DNA of 20,704 bases from Candidatus Wukongarchaeum yapensis (GTDB lineage: Archaea; Asgardarchaeota; Wukongarchaeia; Wukongarchaeales; Wukongarchaeaceae). Shown in pieces: positions 1-9,516 of this stretch. The stretch spans positions 1 through 20,704 of the forward strand of contig JAEOSI010000015.1 of NCBI GenBank assembly GCA_016840425.1. The letters are read 5' to 3'. Under the pieces are notes generated by a model that saw nothing but the letters and a program-made list of their open reading frames with translations, ran no database searches and was not told where the DNA came from. The position numbers were made by a program, and so were the translations under genes. Each line of letters starts with the position of its first letter. Positions within the stretch are counted from its first letter, which is position 1.

Positions 1-2057
1 GCGTTCCTTAGCTCATCTGCAAGGTCCATTGTTTCTATTGTTGGTATTAGCCCTGTAACTATCGCTTCACCTTCTTTTTCAAGTTGTCTTACGTCTATTA
101 CTTGTCCTCTATGTCCTGAAATAAGCTTTGTAGCTTCTCCCATCATGTGGAGTGGTAAGCGCATGTCAACTCTGACTACGGGTTCGTACAAGCGAGGTTC
201 TGCTGTGAGGAAACTCATGTTCAACGCTGAACTAGTCATAGTAAATACTTCACTATATCCTGTATGCGCCGGATCTTCATGAACAAAACAGTCTGTAATG
301 ACAATTTTCAGCCCCATTACGGGTTCTCTTGCAAGAGGTCCTCCTTCAACAAAATCATTAATCACGTTTATTATTGCTTGTTTTAGCCGGTCTAATCTCT
401 GAACTCCGGCAGTCATATTTACTATTACGTTGTTTTTGTATATATCCCAAATGTTTCTTGCTTCTTTCATGTTCCATCCTGCCTCTTCTTTAAGAATTCT
501 TGCCCGTTCTTTTTCTGGTTGATCTGCAGTAACTTTTCTTGTCTTAATTAGTTCAAGGGTCTTTTCATCAAGGGGTTCTACATAACCCTTAATCTTATTA
601 TGCCCATTAGAACTCTTAGTGTGAAACTCTTGACCTCTTTGTTCAACCTTTTCTCTGAAAACGACTACAGGTTCACTCATATTTATAGGCACATGATCGT
701 TTATTCTTCTAGCTAATACTTCTAATTGCAAGGGGTCTATGCCACTAATAATCGTTTTCTTAGTCTCTTTGTCGAAAGTGAATAATAACGTAGGATCTGC
801 CAAGGTCCACATTTTAACTATCTCATCTAATTTAGCTATGTCTTGAGGATTAGCTGCTTCAATTGTACGTGAAACAACAGGCTCTACCGCGTACTTAATC
901 TGCTCAAAAGGCGTTAGTTCTATATTTGAGTCTGAAAACGATTCTCCTGCAGGGCAAATAAAGCCGTATATGCTAAACATGTTCCCTGCTTTAATTTCTG
1001 GCATATCAAGAATATCTGTTACTTCCTGAACCCCAACTCTTTTTACCCTTTGAACGCTTTTTCTCGTAAGCAAACGAACTTCTTGACCTGCTTTTAATGT
1101 TCCACTAAAAACTCTGCCTACAAGAAAAGCCCTCAATCTTTTAGGATCCATTACAACTTTTGCAATAACCCCTAAAAGATCCCCGTTTGGGTCAGTATCA
1201 AGCAAGGCTTTTCCAACTTCTGAATCAAGATCCCCCTTCCAAATAGATGGAATTTTATTTTTTTGTCCTGTTTCAGGATCTGGCAAATGATTAATAACCA
1301 TCTCCAACATTGCTTCATGAAGCGGTAAGGTTTTACGTAACCATTCCTTATCCCCTTCGGCGTATTTCTCAAAAACTATTTCTGGGGTAATATTTTTACG
1401 TTTTAAAACAGGAAAAGTAAAAGCCCATCCGTCTTTCGCACTGCCAACAGCTACAGTCCCTTCTTTAAAATTACTAGTCCATTCTTCAGCAAACTGAGGT
1501 GGGGCTACTCTACGTATATAATCATTAACCCCCCTGATTATGGTATCCAAACGCTCATAAGCCGCTTTAGGAGATAATCTAAGCTCAGAAATAAGCCTAT
1601 CCGCTTTATTGATGAACAAAACCGGTTTACACCCTTCTGCACCCACAGAGAGCCTAATATTGGTTTCTGTTTGAGTTAAAATTCCCTCCACTGCACAAAC
1701 TACAAGCACAACCCCATCAGAACAACGCAAAGCCCTTGAAACTTCACCGGTCCAACTAATATGCCCTGGCGTATCATTAACTTCGAGCAAGTATGCCTTA
1801 CCATCATACTCAAACCCTAAATTAATTACGCTACCAAAAATTGTTAACTTTCGTTCCTTTTCGATAACATCCCAATTTGTTAGCAGCTTCCTTCCTGCTT
1901 CTGTATCCGCCATTAACCCTGCTTTGCTCAGCAAATAATCTGTTATTGAGGTTTTTCCATGATGTATATGAGCTACAATGGAGAAAATTCTCCTATTTTC
2001 CATAGGGGTGTTAGCAAACATATCTCTTAGTTCTTCTGGGTCTTTTAATTTCACCAT
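1..2057 (-). CDS. fusA: Elongation factor 2 homolog with HTG diphthamide loop and altered G motifs; 3' end runs off the window
   Basis: Hand translation from ATG at 2057 (GAGGTGG SD upstream): MVKLKDPEELRDMF..IVAHIHHGKTSITDYLL..EKERKLTIF..NDTPGHISWTGEVSRALRCSDG..FINKAD..SGIDPLQLE..GGPLAREP..HEDPAHTGYSE..LYEP. 685 codons lie inside the window with no stop seen. Confidence 0.95.
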   Translation of the reverse strand, partial: MVKLKDPEELRDMFANTPMENRRIFSIVAHIHHGKTSITDYLLSKAGLMADTEAGRKLLTNWDVIEKERKLTIFGSVINLGFEYDGKAYLLEVNDTPGHISWTGEVSRALRCSDGVVLVVCAVEGILTQTETNIRLSVGAEGCKPVLFINKADRLISELRLSPKAAYERLDTIIRGVNDYIRRVAPPQFAEEWTSNFKEGTVAVGSAKDGWAFTFPVLKRKNITPEIVFEKYAEGDKEWLRKTLPLHEAMLEMVINHLPDPETGQKNKIPSIWKGDLDSEVGKALLDTDPNGDLLGVIAKVVMDPKRLRAFLVGRVFSGTLKAGQEVRLLTRKSVQRVKRVGVQEVTDILDMPEIKAGNMFSIYGFICPAGESFSDSNIELTPFEQIKYAVEPVVSRTIEAANPQDIAKLDEIVKMWTLADPTLLFTFDKETKKTIISGIDPLQLEVLARRINDHVPINMSEPVVVFREKVEQRGQEFHTKSSNGHNKIKGYVEPLDEKTLELIKTRKVTADQPEKERARILKEEAGWNMKEARNIWDIYKNNVIVNMTAGVQRLDRLKQAIINVINDFVEGGPLAREPVMGLKIVITDCFVHEDPAHTGYSEVFTMTSSALNMSFLTAEPRLYEPVVRVDMRLPLHMMGEATKLISGHRGQVIDVRQLEKEGEAIVTGLIPTIETMDLADELRN

Positions 2058-2207
2058 TAGCAACCACCTCTCTTTACCATAAATAATTGAAAAGATAAGA
2101 AAAAATGATCTTATTTTTATTTATTTAACCTTAATTTTTTTAATATAATATCTTTACATTAACCTTTCCATAATTATCAAAAAAAATATAATAACCTAAA
2201 ATGATAA

Positions 2208-2459
2208 TTAGGATGCAGCAACTCCTTTATAAATCCTGCATATCAACGTGTCTAATTCTTCGTTGTTTTGGTCCTTTTCAAATTCGAAGAACCAACCTTT
2301 TTCTTCTAAAATAGTCTCTATCATTTCCCGTAGTTCTGCTCTTTCTGGGGATTGTGGCAATTCAAGTTCTTCAAAGACGTCAAACTTTGAAATAGCGTCT
2401 AGGCATGTTTCTATAGTGTCTATCTTGATCTTTTTTCTATCTTTTTCTGCCAAAACCAT
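2208..2459 (-). CDS. Small acidic hypothetical protein (83 aa)
   Basis: ATG start with a purine-rich upstream stretch, E/K-rich helical composition, fills the gap between the two EF-2 genes. No family recognised. Confidence 0.6.
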   Translation of the reverse strand: MVLAEKDRKKIKIDTIETCLDAISKFDVFEELELPQSPERAELREMIETILEEKGWFFEFEKDQNNEELDTLICRIYKGVAAS

Positions 2460-2571
2460 TAGTTATCCCAACCATTACTTATCCCCTTACTTATCCCAAC
2501 AATATATAAAATTGTCTCAATAATATTTACTCTTAATGATCTATCAAGTTTTTTATTTTTAAAGGAGTACT

Positions 2572-5337
2572 TTGAGATTGTCTTCTAAAATCAGACGGCT
2601 TGTAGACGATATAAATAAGATTATGCTTTTTAAAGAAAACATTCGTAATTTCTGCATATGTTCCCATGTTGATCATGGAAAATGTGTTTCTGGTGATTCA
2701 AAAGTTTATGTTAATGGTCAATGGGAGAAAGCTTCTGTACTTTTTGAATCCTTTAAACAATCTCCGATAATTTTTTCTGGTAAAAATGAAACAGTTTTAG
2801 ATGTTTCTTCAAAAGGTTTGCGCACCATATCTCTAGATGTTTCTACTGGATGCATTTTGTGGAAACCCATAACCTATATCTGGCGATTAAAATATGATTC
2901 TAATTTGATTGAAGTTTCATTAGGGAATGGAAGAAAAGTAAAAGTTACTCCTGAGCACAAATTTTTAGTTTTAAACGGTAATAAAATCATAGAAAAAAAT
3001 GCAAAGAATCTGAAAAAAGGAGATTATATAATTGTGCCTAATACGTTGCATGTAACTCCCAATGATCCTGATTTTATTTCTAAAACAATTCCACTTAATA
3101 GCAAAGATATATGTTTTGAAAAAGTGGTTTCAAAAAGTTTAATGTTTGAAAATTATGTTTATGATTTTTCTGTTCCTGATACTCATAATTTAGTTGTGGA
3201 AGGATTTTTCGTACATAATACAACCCTCGCTGACAATTTGTTAGTTGCTGCTGGTCTACTTTCACCAAATGTTGCGGGAAAGGCTCTTGCTCTAGATTAT
3301 TTGGAAGAAGAACAAAAAAGAGGTATAACGATAAAAACAGCTATAATATCTCTTTTACATAAAATCGGCAATAAATCTTACATACTTAATCTGATAGATA
3401 CCCCCGGTCATATTGATTTTAGTGGAAAAGTAACAAGGGCACTGCGAATAATTGACGGTGCAGTAGTAGTTGTAGATGCTTTAGAAGGAATTATGGTTCA
3501 GACAGAAATTGTTACAGAACAAGCGTTAAATGAATGTGTAAAACCTGTACTATTTATTAACAAATTAGACCGTCTTATCCGCGAGTTAAAACTATCTCCC
3601 AAAGAAATCCAAAAACGTTTAAGTTCTATAATTAGCGACTTTAATGGCATCATCGATTCTTATGCAGAGCCAAAATTCATTAAATTATGGAAAGTTAAAC
3701 CTGCTGCAGGATCTGTGACTTTTGGTTCAGCTCTTCATAGGTGGGGTTTTACATTACCAATTGCTAAAGAAAAAGGTGTAAAATTTTCAGACATAATTCA
3801 GTTTTATGCCCAAAATAATGGGTTTTTAAAGCTTAGCACTTTGCTTCCTCTTCATTCTGCTGTACTTGATATGATTGTTAATCATCTTCCTTCTCCTACG
3901 GAGGCTCAGGCTTATCGTATACCTAAACTTTGGCATGGTGACCTTTCTAGTGAAATCGGTCAAGCCATGCTTAAATGTGATTCAAGTTCTCCTCTTGTCA
4001 TTGTTATAAATCATTCTTACATTGATCCTTTAGTTAAAAGTGTTATTTGTATGGGGCGAATTTTTTCTGGTGTTGTCCATGTTGGCGATAAGGTGTTTAT
4101 TCTTTCTAAAAAGAAACGGAACAGAGTTCATCAAGTAAGCATGTTTATGGGTGAAAATCGCATTGTTGTAGACGAGGTTTCTACTGGTAATATAGTGGCT
4201 CTTCTGGGTCTTGAAGAAGCACGTCCTGGGGATACTGTTTGTGATTTATCTATAGCGGATTCTATGGTTCCTTTTGAGTTAATAAAATATGTGAGTGAAC
4301 CTGTTGTCACAGTTGCTATAGAACCTTTAAATCCGAAAGGTTTACCCAAAATGATTGAAATAATGGAAAAAAATCTTGTTATTGAAGATCCTAATCTCAA
4401 AGTTTCTATTAATAAAGAGACCGGAGAATACCTTTTAAGCGGTATAGGCGAGTTGCATCTTGAAATAGCAGCAAAGAAAATTATAGAACATGGCATAGAT
4501 GTTTCAATTTCTCCTCCAATTGTTTCATTTAGGGAAAGCATTACGCAAAAAACTCCTCATCCCATTGTTGTTAAGAGCCCTAATCATTATAATGAAATGT
4601 CTTTGATAGTTGAACCTCTCGAGGAAAAAATTGTAGACTTAATAATTAACACGGGTATAAATGGTCCTTTTACAGAAAAAGAATCGCCGAAATTGGTAGG
4701 AGACTTTATCGATAAAACTTTCCTTGATTTAAGGAAAATTTTGGGATTATCTGCTACAGGAAATATCTTGCTTTTAGATTTTGAAAATTCTCAACTTTTG
4801 TCTGATGTTAAAGATTCCATAGTATCCGGATTTTTGCAAGCTTGTAATTCTGGTCCTTTATGCGAAGAATCTCTTCGCGGGATAAAAATTTTGGTCAAAA
4901 ACTTAAATTATGCTGATGTTATTCAAAAACGGGGAAGTGAAATCGTTCATATGGTTAAAAATGCTATATGGGATGCAATAATCTCATCTGGTCCATCACT
5001 ATTAGAGCCTATTTATAAAATAACGATACGTCTTACTCGTGATTTCATTGGAAAGGTTAAACATGTTCTCTCTAAAAGGAGAGGAACTATTCATAGTATT
5101 AAAGAAAAACCTCCTGTTTTCATTATAACCGGGTTTATACCTGTGGCTGATACCTTTAATTTAGCTTCAGAATTAAGAAGTGAAACTAGTGGAACCGCTC
5201 TTTGGCAAATGAAACTTGATCATTGGGCTTTTGTCCCTAAAAACAAGTTAAAAAACCTCATACTTGAAATTAGGCAACGAAAAGGCCTCTACCCTGACTT
5301 TCCAGAAACTCCGATATTTCTTGATAATATTGAATAA
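2572..5337 (+). CDS. fusA: Elongation factor 2 paralog (aEF-2p-like), intein-containing precursor of 921 aa, about 742 aa after splicing
   Basis: TTG start after AAGGAG. Motifs SHVDHGK/TT, EEEQKRGITIK, DTPGHIDF, NKLD, SGIGELHLE, GPLCEE..LLEP. KRG replaces the HRG diphthamide motif. Confidence 0.95.
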   Translation: MRLSSKIRRLVDDINKIMLFKENIRNFCICSHVDHGKCVSGDSKVYVNGQWEKASVLFESFKQSPIIFSGKNETVLDVSSKGLRTISLDVSTGCILWKPITYIWRLKYDSNLIEVSLGNGRKVKVTPEHKFLVLNGNKIIEKNAKNLKKGDYIIVPNTLHVTPNDPDFISKTIPLNSKDICFEKVVSKSLMFENYVYDFSVPDTHNLVVEGFFVHNTTLADNLLVAAGLLSPNVAGKALALDYLEEEQKRGITIKTAIISLLHKIGNKSYILNLIDTPGHIDFSGKVTRALRIIDGAVVVVDALEGIMVQTEIVTEQALNECVKPVLFINKLDRLIRELKLSPKEIQKRLSSIISDFNGIIDSYAEPKFIKLWKVKPAAGSVTFGSALHRWGFTLPIAKEKGVKFSDIIQFYAQNNGFLKLSTLLPLHSAVLDMIVNHLPSPTEAQAYRIPKLWHGDLSSEIGQAMLKCDSSSPLVIVINHSYIDPLVKSVICMGRIFSGVVHVGDKVFILSKKKRNRVHQVSMFMGENRIVVDEVSTGNIVALLGLEEARPGDTVCDLSIADSMVPFELIKYVSEPVVTVAIEPLNPKGLPKMIEIMEKNLVIEDPNLKVSINKETGEYLLSGIGELHLEIAAKKIIEHGIDVSISPPIVSFRESITQKTPHPIVVKSPNHYNEMSLIVEPLEEKIVDLIINTGINGPFTEKESPKLVGDFIDKTFLDLRKILGLSATGNILLLDFENSQLLSDVKDSIVSGFLQACNSGPLCEESLRGIKILVKNLNYADVIQKRGSEIVHMVKNAIWDAIISSGPSLLEPIYKITIRLTRDFIGKVKHVLSKRRGTIHSIKEKPPVFIITGFIPVADTFNLASELRSETSGTALWQMKLDHWAFVPKNKLKNLILEIRQRKGLYPDFPETPIFLDNIE
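2683..3219 (+). other. Mini-intein (179 aa, no homing endonuclease) in the EF-2 P-loop
   Basis: Interrupts HVDHGK|TT. Begins with Cys (CVSGDSKV), block B TPEH, block F VYDFSV, C-terminal VHN followed by Thr+1. No LAGLIDADG motif. Confidence 0.95.
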
Positions 5338-8229: not shown

Positions 8230-9516
8230 CGAGAAGTCTCCTTCTGCGAGGGAGGGGATGAATCACGGTGTTTATAAAAGTTTTTAGGAAACTCAAGGTA
8301 GATAAAAATGATAAGTTACAAATTTGGGCTGTATCCAAACCAAGAGCAAGAAAAAAGACTGTTAGAAGTTCTTGATAGGTGTAGGTTTGTCTACAATCAA
8401 ATGTTAGAGGGTTTAAACAAGCAGGAGGGTAAGCCTAATAGGTTGGAGTTGCAAAACTCCATTCCAGAGCTAAAAGAAAAGCATCCAGAGCTGGAAGAAG
8501 TTTACTCTAAAGTTCTCCAATATGAATCGTACAGGTTGTTCTCAAATCTGAGAGGTTTGGCAAGGTTGAAGAAGAACGGTAAAAAAGTAGGGAAACTTAG
8601 ATTTAAGAGTAAAGGATGGTTTAAAACTTTTACATATAATCAGAGCGGGTTTAAAATCATAGAGACTGGTAAGAGACATGACCTGTTACATTTATCGAAG
8701 ATTGGGGATATAAAGATTAGGATGCATAGAACAGTGGAAGGGAAGAAAATAAAACAGGTAACAATAAAGAGATATTGTTCTGGTAAATGGTATGCTTTAA
8801 TTTGTTGTGAACAGACTATACCCGTTAAAAAAGGGGTTGAGAAGAAAGTTGTAGGAATTGATATGGGAATAATCCACTATGTTACCGATATTTGTGGCAG
8901 GCAAATAGAAAACCCTCTTTACCTGAACAAATATTTTAAAAATTTGAGAAAAATACAACGAAAACTATCTAAGAAAAAGAAAGGCTCTAACAACTATCAG
9001 AAACAGAAGATAAGAGTTGCAAAAATGTATGAAAGAATCAAAAATCAGAGGGATGATTTCTTACACAAACTGTCAAGATTTTATGTCCAAAATTATGATT
9101 TTATAGCCGTAGAAAAACTAAACGTAAACGGTTTGATAAGGATTAGTTATAATGCTCGTAACATGATGGATTCCTCTTGGAAAAGATTCACGCAATTTTT
9201 GTCTTATAAGGCTGAAAGAGCTGGTAAGACGGTTTTAGAGGCGGATCCGGGAGGAACTTCACAAGAGTGTTATAAATGCGGTAAAGAAGTAAAGAAAAGT
9301 TTGGCTGTAAGAACCCATAAATGCCCTTACTGTGGTTTAGAAATTGGCAGAGACTACAACTCCGCGTTTGTTGTCTTGAAAAGAGGTTTAGAAGAAGTGT
9401 TAGGGCAGGGACTGTCCGAATTTACGCCTGGGGAGACAGAACCTCTACCGAGAGAAATCTCAGCAAGTTCAGTCGTTGAACCAGGAAACTCCCCCCGATA
9501 GGGAGGAGTAGTTCAC
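8230..9516 (+). mobile_element. IS200/IS605-family (IS1341-like) tnpB-only element
   Basis: Left subterminal hairpin CTCCTTC-tgc-GAGGGAG (8238-8254) after TTTAA (8225-8229). Right hairpin CTCCC..GGGAG (9489-9505) followed by GAGTAGTTCAC. Only tnpB lies inside, no tnpA. Exact ends are inferred. Confidence 0.85.
8308..9501 (+). CDS. tnpB: TnpB RNA-guided endonuclease
   Basis: N-terminal YKFGLYP..Q HTH, RuvC-I GIDMG, RuvC-II AVEKL, zinc finger CYKCG..CPYCG, RuvC-III RDYNSA. Confidence 0.96.
   Translation: MISYKFGLYPNQEQEKRLLEVLDRCRFVYNQMLEGLNKQEGKPNRLELQNSIPELKEKHPELEEVYSKVLQYESYRLFSNLRGLARLKKNGKKVGKLRFKSKGWFKTFTYNQSGFKIIETGKRHDLLHLSKIGDIKIRMHRTVEGKKIKQVTIKRYCSGKWYALICCEQTIPVKKGVEKKVVGIDMGIIHYVTDICGRQIENPLYLNKYFKNLRKIQRKLSKKKKGSNNYQKQKIRVAKMYERIKNQRDDFLHKLSRFYVQNYDFIAVEKLNVNGLIRISYNARNMMDSSWKRFTQFLSYKAERAGKTVLEADPGGTSQECYKCGKEVKKSLAVRTHKCPYCGLEIGRDYNSAFVVLKRGLEEVLGQGLSEFTPGETEPLPREISASSVVEPGNSPR

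Follow-up and report, generated by a model that had tools for sequence, protein, structure and literature searches.

The Asgard archaeon Candidatus Wukongarchaeum yapensis carries two paralogs of elongation factor 2 (EF-2) on a 20,704-nucleotide stretch of contig JAEOSI010000015.1 (hereafter, the window), and we consider it highly probable (roughly 85%) that they are the two EF-2 genes standard for Asgard archaea without diphthamide synthesis. The minus-strand gene is an aEF-2 of the HTG type, and the plus-strand gene is assigned to the aEF-2p paralogs. According to Narrowe et al. 2018 (PMC6143161), two-copy Asgard archaea and Korarchaeota without dph genes possess an aEF-2 that keeps the His, carries R702T, has E660 replaced with Arg or Lys, and has lost K584; the other copy in Asgard archaea is an aEF-2p in which G1–G5 are kept and the His and the SPHKHN loop are lost. 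The same paper uses EFL1/Ria1, Snu114, and Tet(M)/Tet(O) as an analogy for aEF-2p. The pair itself has already been described, and what is new here is a conserved small open reading frame (ORF) between the two genes, an aEF-2p that appears conservative and basal, and an intein in the paralog. The original prediction that these genes form an aEF-2/aEF-2p pair diverged in complementary regions was borne out by both motifs and trees. Such pairs bear on diphthamide-free translation in Asgard archaea and on the origin of the eukaryotic EF-2 paralogs.

Results

Organization of the locus and genome context

ORF listing, translation, and Pfam searches revealed two EF-2 family ORFs on opposite strands, at positions 3–2057 (minus) and 2572/2578–5337 (plus). 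The interval between the two frames (2058–2571) measures 514 bp, which confirms the initial reading of two divergently transcribed EF-2 paralogs about 510 bp apart. Both proteins contain the five EF-2 domains (GTP_EFTU, D2, EFG_III, EFG_IV, and EFG_C) and align end to end with solved archaeal aEF-2 structures, the minus copy with 8hl1 and 5h7j.

The source genome is a metagenome bin of 2.16 Mb in 277 contigs with 92% completeness, and these two are its only EF-2 genes, although a third EF-2 or a dph gene may lie in the missing part. Searches of this 92%-complete genome for dph2 (PF01866) and dph6 (PF01902) gave no match, with positive controls that matched; dph2 (PF01866) likewise had no match in the congener genome.

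Short contigs of one metatranscriptome matched both EF-2 genes at 98–100% identity. They lie on the minus-strand gene at window positions 161–428 (3 mismatches) and on the plus-strand gene at 3234–3401 (4 mismatches) and 4291–4451 (0 mismatches). Transcription of both genes is weakly hinted at by these contigs, with DNA carry-over possible. This library contains short pieces only, none of them in 1247–3204, and that gap is uninformative on expression.

The minus-strand gene is an HTG-type aEF-2

The minus-strand gene (3–2057) starts with ATG at 2057–2055, and its 3' end is cut by the end of the contig. The last 54 codons were found on another contig (C259), which overlaps the end of the gene with 100% identity and brings the total to about 739 aa. 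The encoded protein has a score of 486 bits to 8hl1 and is presumed to act as the translocase, for which its low dN/dS ratio (0.087) and intact GTPase give indirect evidence. It belongs to a clade of HTG-type aEF-2 that was recovered with 100% support in all three trees (SH-aLRT 100 in the quick trees; 100/100 in the careful tree).

The tip of domain IV bears the changes that define this type. In loop 1 (VHEDPAHTGYSE, VHEDPAHTG; 249–284, minus), the diphthamide-site His is retained and R702 is replaced with Thr, the HTG triplet being encoded at 258–266. The equivalent of E660 is Arg in PLAREP (321–338, minus), a change correlated with R702T, and K584 is not conserved in loop 2, KSSNGHNK (594–617, minus). 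In domain III, GIDPLQLE (720–743, minus) replaces GELHLE, as it does throughout the HTG clade, which it characterizes. The gene resembles the aEF-2 of Narrowe et al. 2018 in R702T, E660R, the lack of a conserved K584, the retained His, and membership of the same strongly supported clade. It differs from that description in this genus in two places, switch I and G1. Switch I reads RKLTI (1839–1853, minus), and since other HTG-type aEF-2 carry RGITI or RNITI, this form is genus-specific. The P-loop, AHIHHGKTS (1947–1973, minus), is intact and contains a D-to-H change; the resulting HIHHGK also occurs in canonical aEF-2 (e.g., P0132). We found no mention of the clade-wide change from GELHLE to GIDPLQ[IL]E in the accessible part of Narrowe et al. 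2018.

This copy had been predicted to show the opposite pattern to the plus copy, that is, a retained diphthamide-site motif and lost GTPase motifs. The expectation held for the retained His, the loss of GELHLE, and the altered switch I, but not for the remaining GTPase motifs, because G1 (AHIHHGKTS), G3 (DTPGH), G4 (NKAD), and G5 (GSAK) are all intact. The further proposal of reciprocal degeneration was not supported. HxDPAH-T, GIDPLQxE (residues G441–E448 of domain III), and the E660-to-Arg change are invariant in eight orthologues from at least six families, and the dN/dS ratio of 0.087 against the congener indicates strong purifying selection. Being invariant and constrained, within a clade of full support, the changes of the minus copy are therefore conserved derived states, some of them already described by Narrowe et al. 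2018. The complementary motif loss is real, but, judged by these comparisons, it is the conserved signature of two clades and involves no decay in this genome.

The plus-strand gene groups with aEF-2p

The plus-strand frame comprises 921 codons from 2572, of which about 740 aa form the extein, and the extein aligns to 8hl1 with 672 bits. TTG at 2572 is the first possible start codon; the precursor probably starts at the conserved TTG at 2578 (2578–5337, plus), because the frame of the congener opens at the equivalent position. Selection on the extein is clear and weaker than on aEF-2 (dN/dS 0.20 against the congener).

The GTPase core is canonical and the tip of domain IV is not. The plus copy carries RGITI, DTPGH, NKLD, GSAL, and the canonical domain III motif GELHLE (4447–4464, plus), and in the spliced protein G1–G5 are all conserved (SHVDHGK/TTL, RGITI, DTPGH, NKLD, and GSAL, where the slash marks the splice junction). 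The initial description of G1, switch I, G3, G4, and GELHLE as intact accordingly stands for all of them except G1, which is split at the DNA level, and interrupted in the precursor, by an intein at 2683–3219. Loop 1 of domain IV (YADVIQKRGSEI, YADVIQKRG; 4909–4944, plus) takes the place of HxDxxHRGPAQ; the diphthamide-site His and the HxDxxHRG motif are lost, and both His of HxDxxH are gone. The reported KRG in place of HRG was found at exactly the codons predicted, 4927–4935 on the plus strand. Loop 2, KSPNHYNE (4573–4596, plus), retains S-P-N and is altered at K584 and H585.

The motifs tabulated for the two copies agree with aEF-2 and aEF-2p as Narrowe et al. 2018 define them. The plus copy resembles the aEF-2p described there in that G1–G5 and the fold are kept, the His of HxDxxHRG and the Lys of SPHKHN are lost, and an HTG-type aEF-2 co-occurs. 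Unlike the other aEF-2p sampled, it is little derived, spans the full length, keeps RG and S-P-N, contains an intein, and adjoins aEF-2.

The trees support the same assignment with one reservation. The quick trees did not resolve the plus copy, and a better tree had escaped the quick search, so we relied on the careful tree (LG+G4). In that tree, the plus copy falls inside a clade that contains aEF-2p only (19 sequences), with 98/97 support, as sister to the other 17. By identity, it is closer to canonical EF-2 (51–53%) than to other aEF-2p (about 36–47%), and its best database matches are canonical EF-2 of Freyarchaeia-like Asgard archaea and Bathyarchaeia (51–53%). An approximately unbiased (AU) test did not reject a grouping of the plus copy with the Freyarchaeia-/Bathyarchaeia-type canonical EF-2 (p = 0.79). 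In the careful tree, the aEF-2p clade adjoins the canonical EF-2 of these same archaea, and this position explains both the 51–53% matches and the AU result. Given the canonical similarity and p = 0.79, the aEF-2p orthology of the plus copy depends on the single LG+G4 tree, and according to this tree and the motifs, the gene is the least-derived and earliest-branching member of the aEF-2p clade.

A mini-intein interrupts the P-loop of aEF-2p

A mini-intein of 179 aa lies between the P-loop Lys and Thr of aEF-2p (2683–3219, plus; PF14890, E = 1.4e-26). The two halves of G1 are encoded at 2662–2682 (SHVDHGK) and 3220–3237 (TTLADN), and the Pfam intein splicing domain spans residues 80–216 of the plus copy. 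The hallmarks of a class 1 intein are present, namely Cys1 (CVSG...), VTPEH in block B, the terminal FFVHN/T, and Thr+1. The homing endonuclease domain PF14528 had no match in the 179 aa, whereas relatives carry it. The intact catalytic residues, a dN/dS ratio of 0.30 for the intein against the congener, and the constraint on the host gene suggest that the intein is competent for splicing.

The insertion site (HGK/C...HN/TT) is that of inteins in many canonical aEF-2. The closest comparisons are with the P-loop inteins found in canonical aEF-2, for instance in the 1142-aa aEF-2 of Methanothermus fervidus DSM 2088, and in aIF5B, which share the site HGK/C...HN/T, homologous splicing blocks, and 30–44% identity; the M. 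fervidus intein is 44% identical. Unlike the inteins of canonical aEF-2, the present one resides in the paralog aEF-2p, is devoid of an endonuclease domain, and is only 179 aa long. Among the aEF-2p sampled, an intein occurs in this genus only, and elsewhere its type turned up solely in canonical HRG EF-2. The P-loop intein of EF-2 has found its way into the paralog in addition to canonical EF-2. Our literature search found no paper naming an EF-2 intein, and EF-2 is not listed in the main text of Novikova 2015.

The adjacency is real and, among the genomes searched, restricted to this genus

The congener shows an identical gene order (Cdc6, enolase, aEF-2p, small ORF, aEF-2). An unrelated mangrove metagenome yielded a contig of 3,544 nt that covers positions 1–3200 of the window at about 98.4% identity, and runs from 11 studies contain near-identical DNA. 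Misassembly had been named as what might undo the adjacency; since the arrangement recurs in both the congener and the independent mangrove contig, the adjacency is real.

It was not seen in any other genus searched, though it may occur elsewhere in the phylum. Among 41 genomes of 25 genera, all listed in full, the EF-2 copies are adjacent in the congener only; in the others, copies that share a contig are separated by 46–556 kb. A contig scan with the aEF-2 alignment, which returned mostly bacterial EF-G and LepA matches, left 12 usable Asgard loci; at 11 further aEF-2 loci of Thor, Odin, and Loki lineages, no second EF-2 was present within flanks of about 0.3 to 10 kb. A synteny survey had been suggested to establish whether adjacency is a general feature; among the 25 genera and 11 further loci it proved to be confined to this genus. 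Conservation of the arrangement across lineages, a mark of a shared bidirectional promoter, was likewise not seen among these genera and loci. When the enolase and Cdc6 of the window and the TFS and AsnB-like neighbours on contig C259 were used as tblastn queries against 39 Asgard EF-2 loci, nothing was found.

With about 2,000 genes per genome, two named genes adjoin by chance in roughly 0.2% of genomes, and since about 25 two-copy genera were sampled, one adjacent case is only mildly surprising. As the aEF-2 of this genus is nested in the HTG clade next to another family (f6) in the quick trees, secondary juxtaposition is the more parsimonious account. Physical linkage of aEF-2 and aEF-2p is not general, and no evidence of co-regulation can be read from it. 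The class to which the window belongs comprises three genomes only. The third of these has dph2 and a single canonical EF-2 in a long, insert-bearing form, which we read as eukaryote-like.

A conserved small ORF separates the two genes

Within the 514-bp gap lies an orphan acidic ORF of 83 aa (2208–2459, minus) in the same orientation as aEF-2. This block is about 94% identical to the congener at the DNA level without a single indel, while both flanks contain several (alignment of 2020–2620). The predicted protein shares 91.6% of its residues with that of the congener, and its dN/dS ratio is 0.26. The independent mangrove contig differs from the window by indels at 2156–2204 and 2543 and by none within the small ORF. 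Its sequence gave no match above noise in Pfam and noise-level matches only in the Atlas, and it had no relative but itself among 5.8 billion proteins. Rfam searches of 1950–2700 detected no family. An ORF on the opposite strand (2248–2523) was set aside, its translation being of low complexity and rich in Ser.

The region upstream of aEF-2 (2058–2207, minus) contains GAGGTGG 6–7 nt before the ATG. Positions 2058–2140 are free of indels, those of the congener and the mangrove contig within 2058–2207 being confined to 2141–2207, and the approximately 80 bp before the ATG form a separately conserved block with the GAGGTGG Shine-Dalgarno sequence. A run of eight T residues (2179–2186, minus), 22–29 nt past the stop codon of the small ORF, is a candidate archaeal terminator. 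Given the small ORF at 2208–2459 and the aEF-2p start at 2578, the true divergent spacer measures 118 bp (2460–2577). This AT-rich spacer carries a TATA-like element (ATATATAAAA, at about 2502–2511) and GGAG (2564–2567); it contains indels and shows the lowest conservation in the region. Both 2058–2207 and 2460–2577 may serve as promoter regions. No shared motif was found, and a triple repeat of TTATCCC (2463–2495) is absent from the congener.

The original prediction of a shared upstream region and co-regulation finds little footing in this layout. The conserved 83-aa ORF and the T run intervene between the two genes, so that the start codons are not free of an intervening gene, as a shared bidirectional promoter would have it, and the two EF-2 genes are served by separate Shine-Dalgarno sequences and proximal AT-rich regions. 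The 514-bp gap is not supported as a shared regulatory region for both genes.

Discussion

In the reading we prefer, the HTG-type aEF-2 would be the working translocase, the tip of its domain IV having been remodelled through R702T and E660R to function without diphthamide. Its partner aEF-2p, in which the G domain and domain III look ancestral, may be a GTPase that depends on the ribosome; as its decoding-centre tip lacks both His, its role is most likely other than translocation. The protein would be made as a precursor, and its Walker A motif would be complete only once the endonuclease-free mini-intein of 179 aa has spliced out. A rearrangement in this genus would have brought both EF-2 genes into the divergent arrangement, on either side of the 83-aa ORF, and each unit is probably transcribed on its own. 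These roles of the two proteins and the separate transcription are predictions from sequence comparison.

Like EFL1/Ria1, Snu114, and Tet(M)/Tet(O), aEF-2p combines the EF-2/EF-G fold and a GTPase core with a diverged domain IV tip, and the likeness is drawn as an analogy. Those proteins are used in non-translocation tasks on ribosomes or ribonucleoprotein particles. In yeast, few of the residues put in place of the diphthamide His reportedly support growth, as Kimata and Kohno are said to have found in 1994. This would fit a non-translocase role for the Lys-bearing aEF-2p.

The identity of the plus copy is the point at which another account deserves the most attention. Rather than an orthologue of the other Asgard aEF-2p, it might be an aEF-2 of canonical type in which the diphthamide loop was lost independently in this lineage; the gene and its P-loop intein might have been acquired as one. 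Outside the genus, it is matched best by canonical EF-2 of Freyarchaeia-like Asgard archaea and Bathyarchaeia (51–53% identity), it retains RG, S-P-N, and the full length, its intein is of a type otherwise restricted to canonical HRG EF-2, and a tree with the canonical grouping is not rejected and scores above the quick tree. Nevertheless, we regard this account as unlikely: the careful tree places the plus copy in the 98/97 clade of aEF-2p only, sister to the other 17; the canonical Freyarchaeia/Bathyarchaeia group next to that clade explains the identity values and the AU result; and the gene co-occurs with an HTG-type aEF-2 in a genome in which dph2 and dph6 were not found, as aEF-2p does elsewhere.

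The arrangement of the genes invites a different proposal, namely that they form a co-regulated divergent module in which the small ORF and aEF-2 are expressed leftward as an operon and aEF-2p rightward, both from 2460–2577, with coupled outputs. In its favour, two species and an independent contig share the divergent arrangement with the small ORF, TATA-like boxes occur in the AT-rich spacer, and one RNA library contains near-identical pieces of both genes. However, the supposed promoter region is the least conserved part and contains indels, the T run lies just past the small ORF, the 80 bp before aEF-2 are a separate conserved block with a Shine-Dalgarno sequence of its own, and the genes are together in no other lineage searched and share no motif that we could find; we judge this proposal unlikely, and slightly less probable than a canonical origin of the plus copy. 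An extended version, in which the pair is a functional module driven from the 118-bp spacer, aEF-2p is gated post-translationally by splicing, and the arrangement maybe goes back to an early state of the EF-2 duplication in Asgard archaea, strikes us as more doubtful again; the thought behind its last element is that this genus holds the least-derived aEF-2p and might therefore preserve that state. That the adjacency is an artefact of assembly or binning is barely conceivable: the bin is fragmented into 277 contigs and the minus-strand gene touches a contig end, but the congener has the identical order, one unrelated mangrove contig bridges 1–3200, and near-identical sequence was recovered in 11 studies. 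The standard two-gene complement of a diphthamide-free Asgard archaeon is the reading with which we proceed, and with it adjacency is a trait restricted to this genus among the genomes searched. Because this aEF-2p is of full length, keeps RG and S-P-N, and appears basal in its clade, it lends itself well to biochemical studies of the role of aEF-2p.

Domain III signature of HTG-type aEF-2 and completion of the gene

The near-universal domain III motif GELHLE is replaced by GIDPLQ[IL]E in all sampled HTG-type aEF-2 proteins of Asgard archaea (alignment A1), including the aEF-2 of the window, where it is encoded at 720-743. No mention of GIDPLQ[IL]E as a clade signature was found in the consulted sections of Narrowe 2018 (PMC6143161). 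Positions 1-142 of the window overlap positions 2-142 of C259 (L003), another contig of the same genome, by approximately 140 bp with 100% identity, and the two contigs are therefore joined. C259 supplies the C-terminus of aEF-2, together with a TFS/RpoM-like zinc-ribbon ORF and an asparagine-synthase-like ORF.

Neighborhood of the aEF-2/aEF-2p pair

An acidic orphan ORF of 83 aa is located on the minus strand (2208-2459); both the congener and an independent metagenome contig conserve it free of indels, and no relatives of it were detectable. Directly upstream of its start, three direct copies of TTATCCC are present at 2463-2495, whereas the congener has a single copy; the repeats thus probably do not represent a conserved regulatory site. 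A plus-strand TnpB/OrfB_IS605-type gene with OrfB_IS605 and Cas12f1-like TNB domains (8308-9501) lies three genes downstream of aEF-2p, beyond the enolase and Orc1/Cdc6 genes, and this nearby mobile element could have contributed to the rearrangement of the locus.

Inserts in the G3 motif of canonical EF-2

In two species of another Asgard genus (G007 and G017), a frameshifting 29-nt insert splits the G3 motif of the sole canonical (HRG) EF-2 between DTPGHV and NFTG (approximately 2140-2168 on the minus strand of L031, G007:C1; approximately 717-745 of L115, G017:C4). The insert has a GTA codon at either side and forms a hairpin fold; the differences between the two species are mostly in the loop or are G-C to G-U changes, and the pairing is therefore preserved. 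Such an insert within an essential gene may represent a mini-intron or an element for translational bypass. Its appearance is not that of a canonical bulge-helix-bulge intron.

G002, the sole other genome in the order of the window, has dph2 and one canonical EF-2, which is of a long, insert-bearing form (approximately 810 codons). The G3 motif of this gene is interrupted at the same position by a 33-nt insert that keeps the reading frame but contains a TAA stop (approximately 1949-1981 of L027, G002:C76; DTPG-L*RTCGSLLNG-HVDFSG). This insert could be either genuine or an assembly artefact. It is associated with a 13-nt direct repeat, one copy of which lies within the insert while the other spans the 3' junction into the exon.
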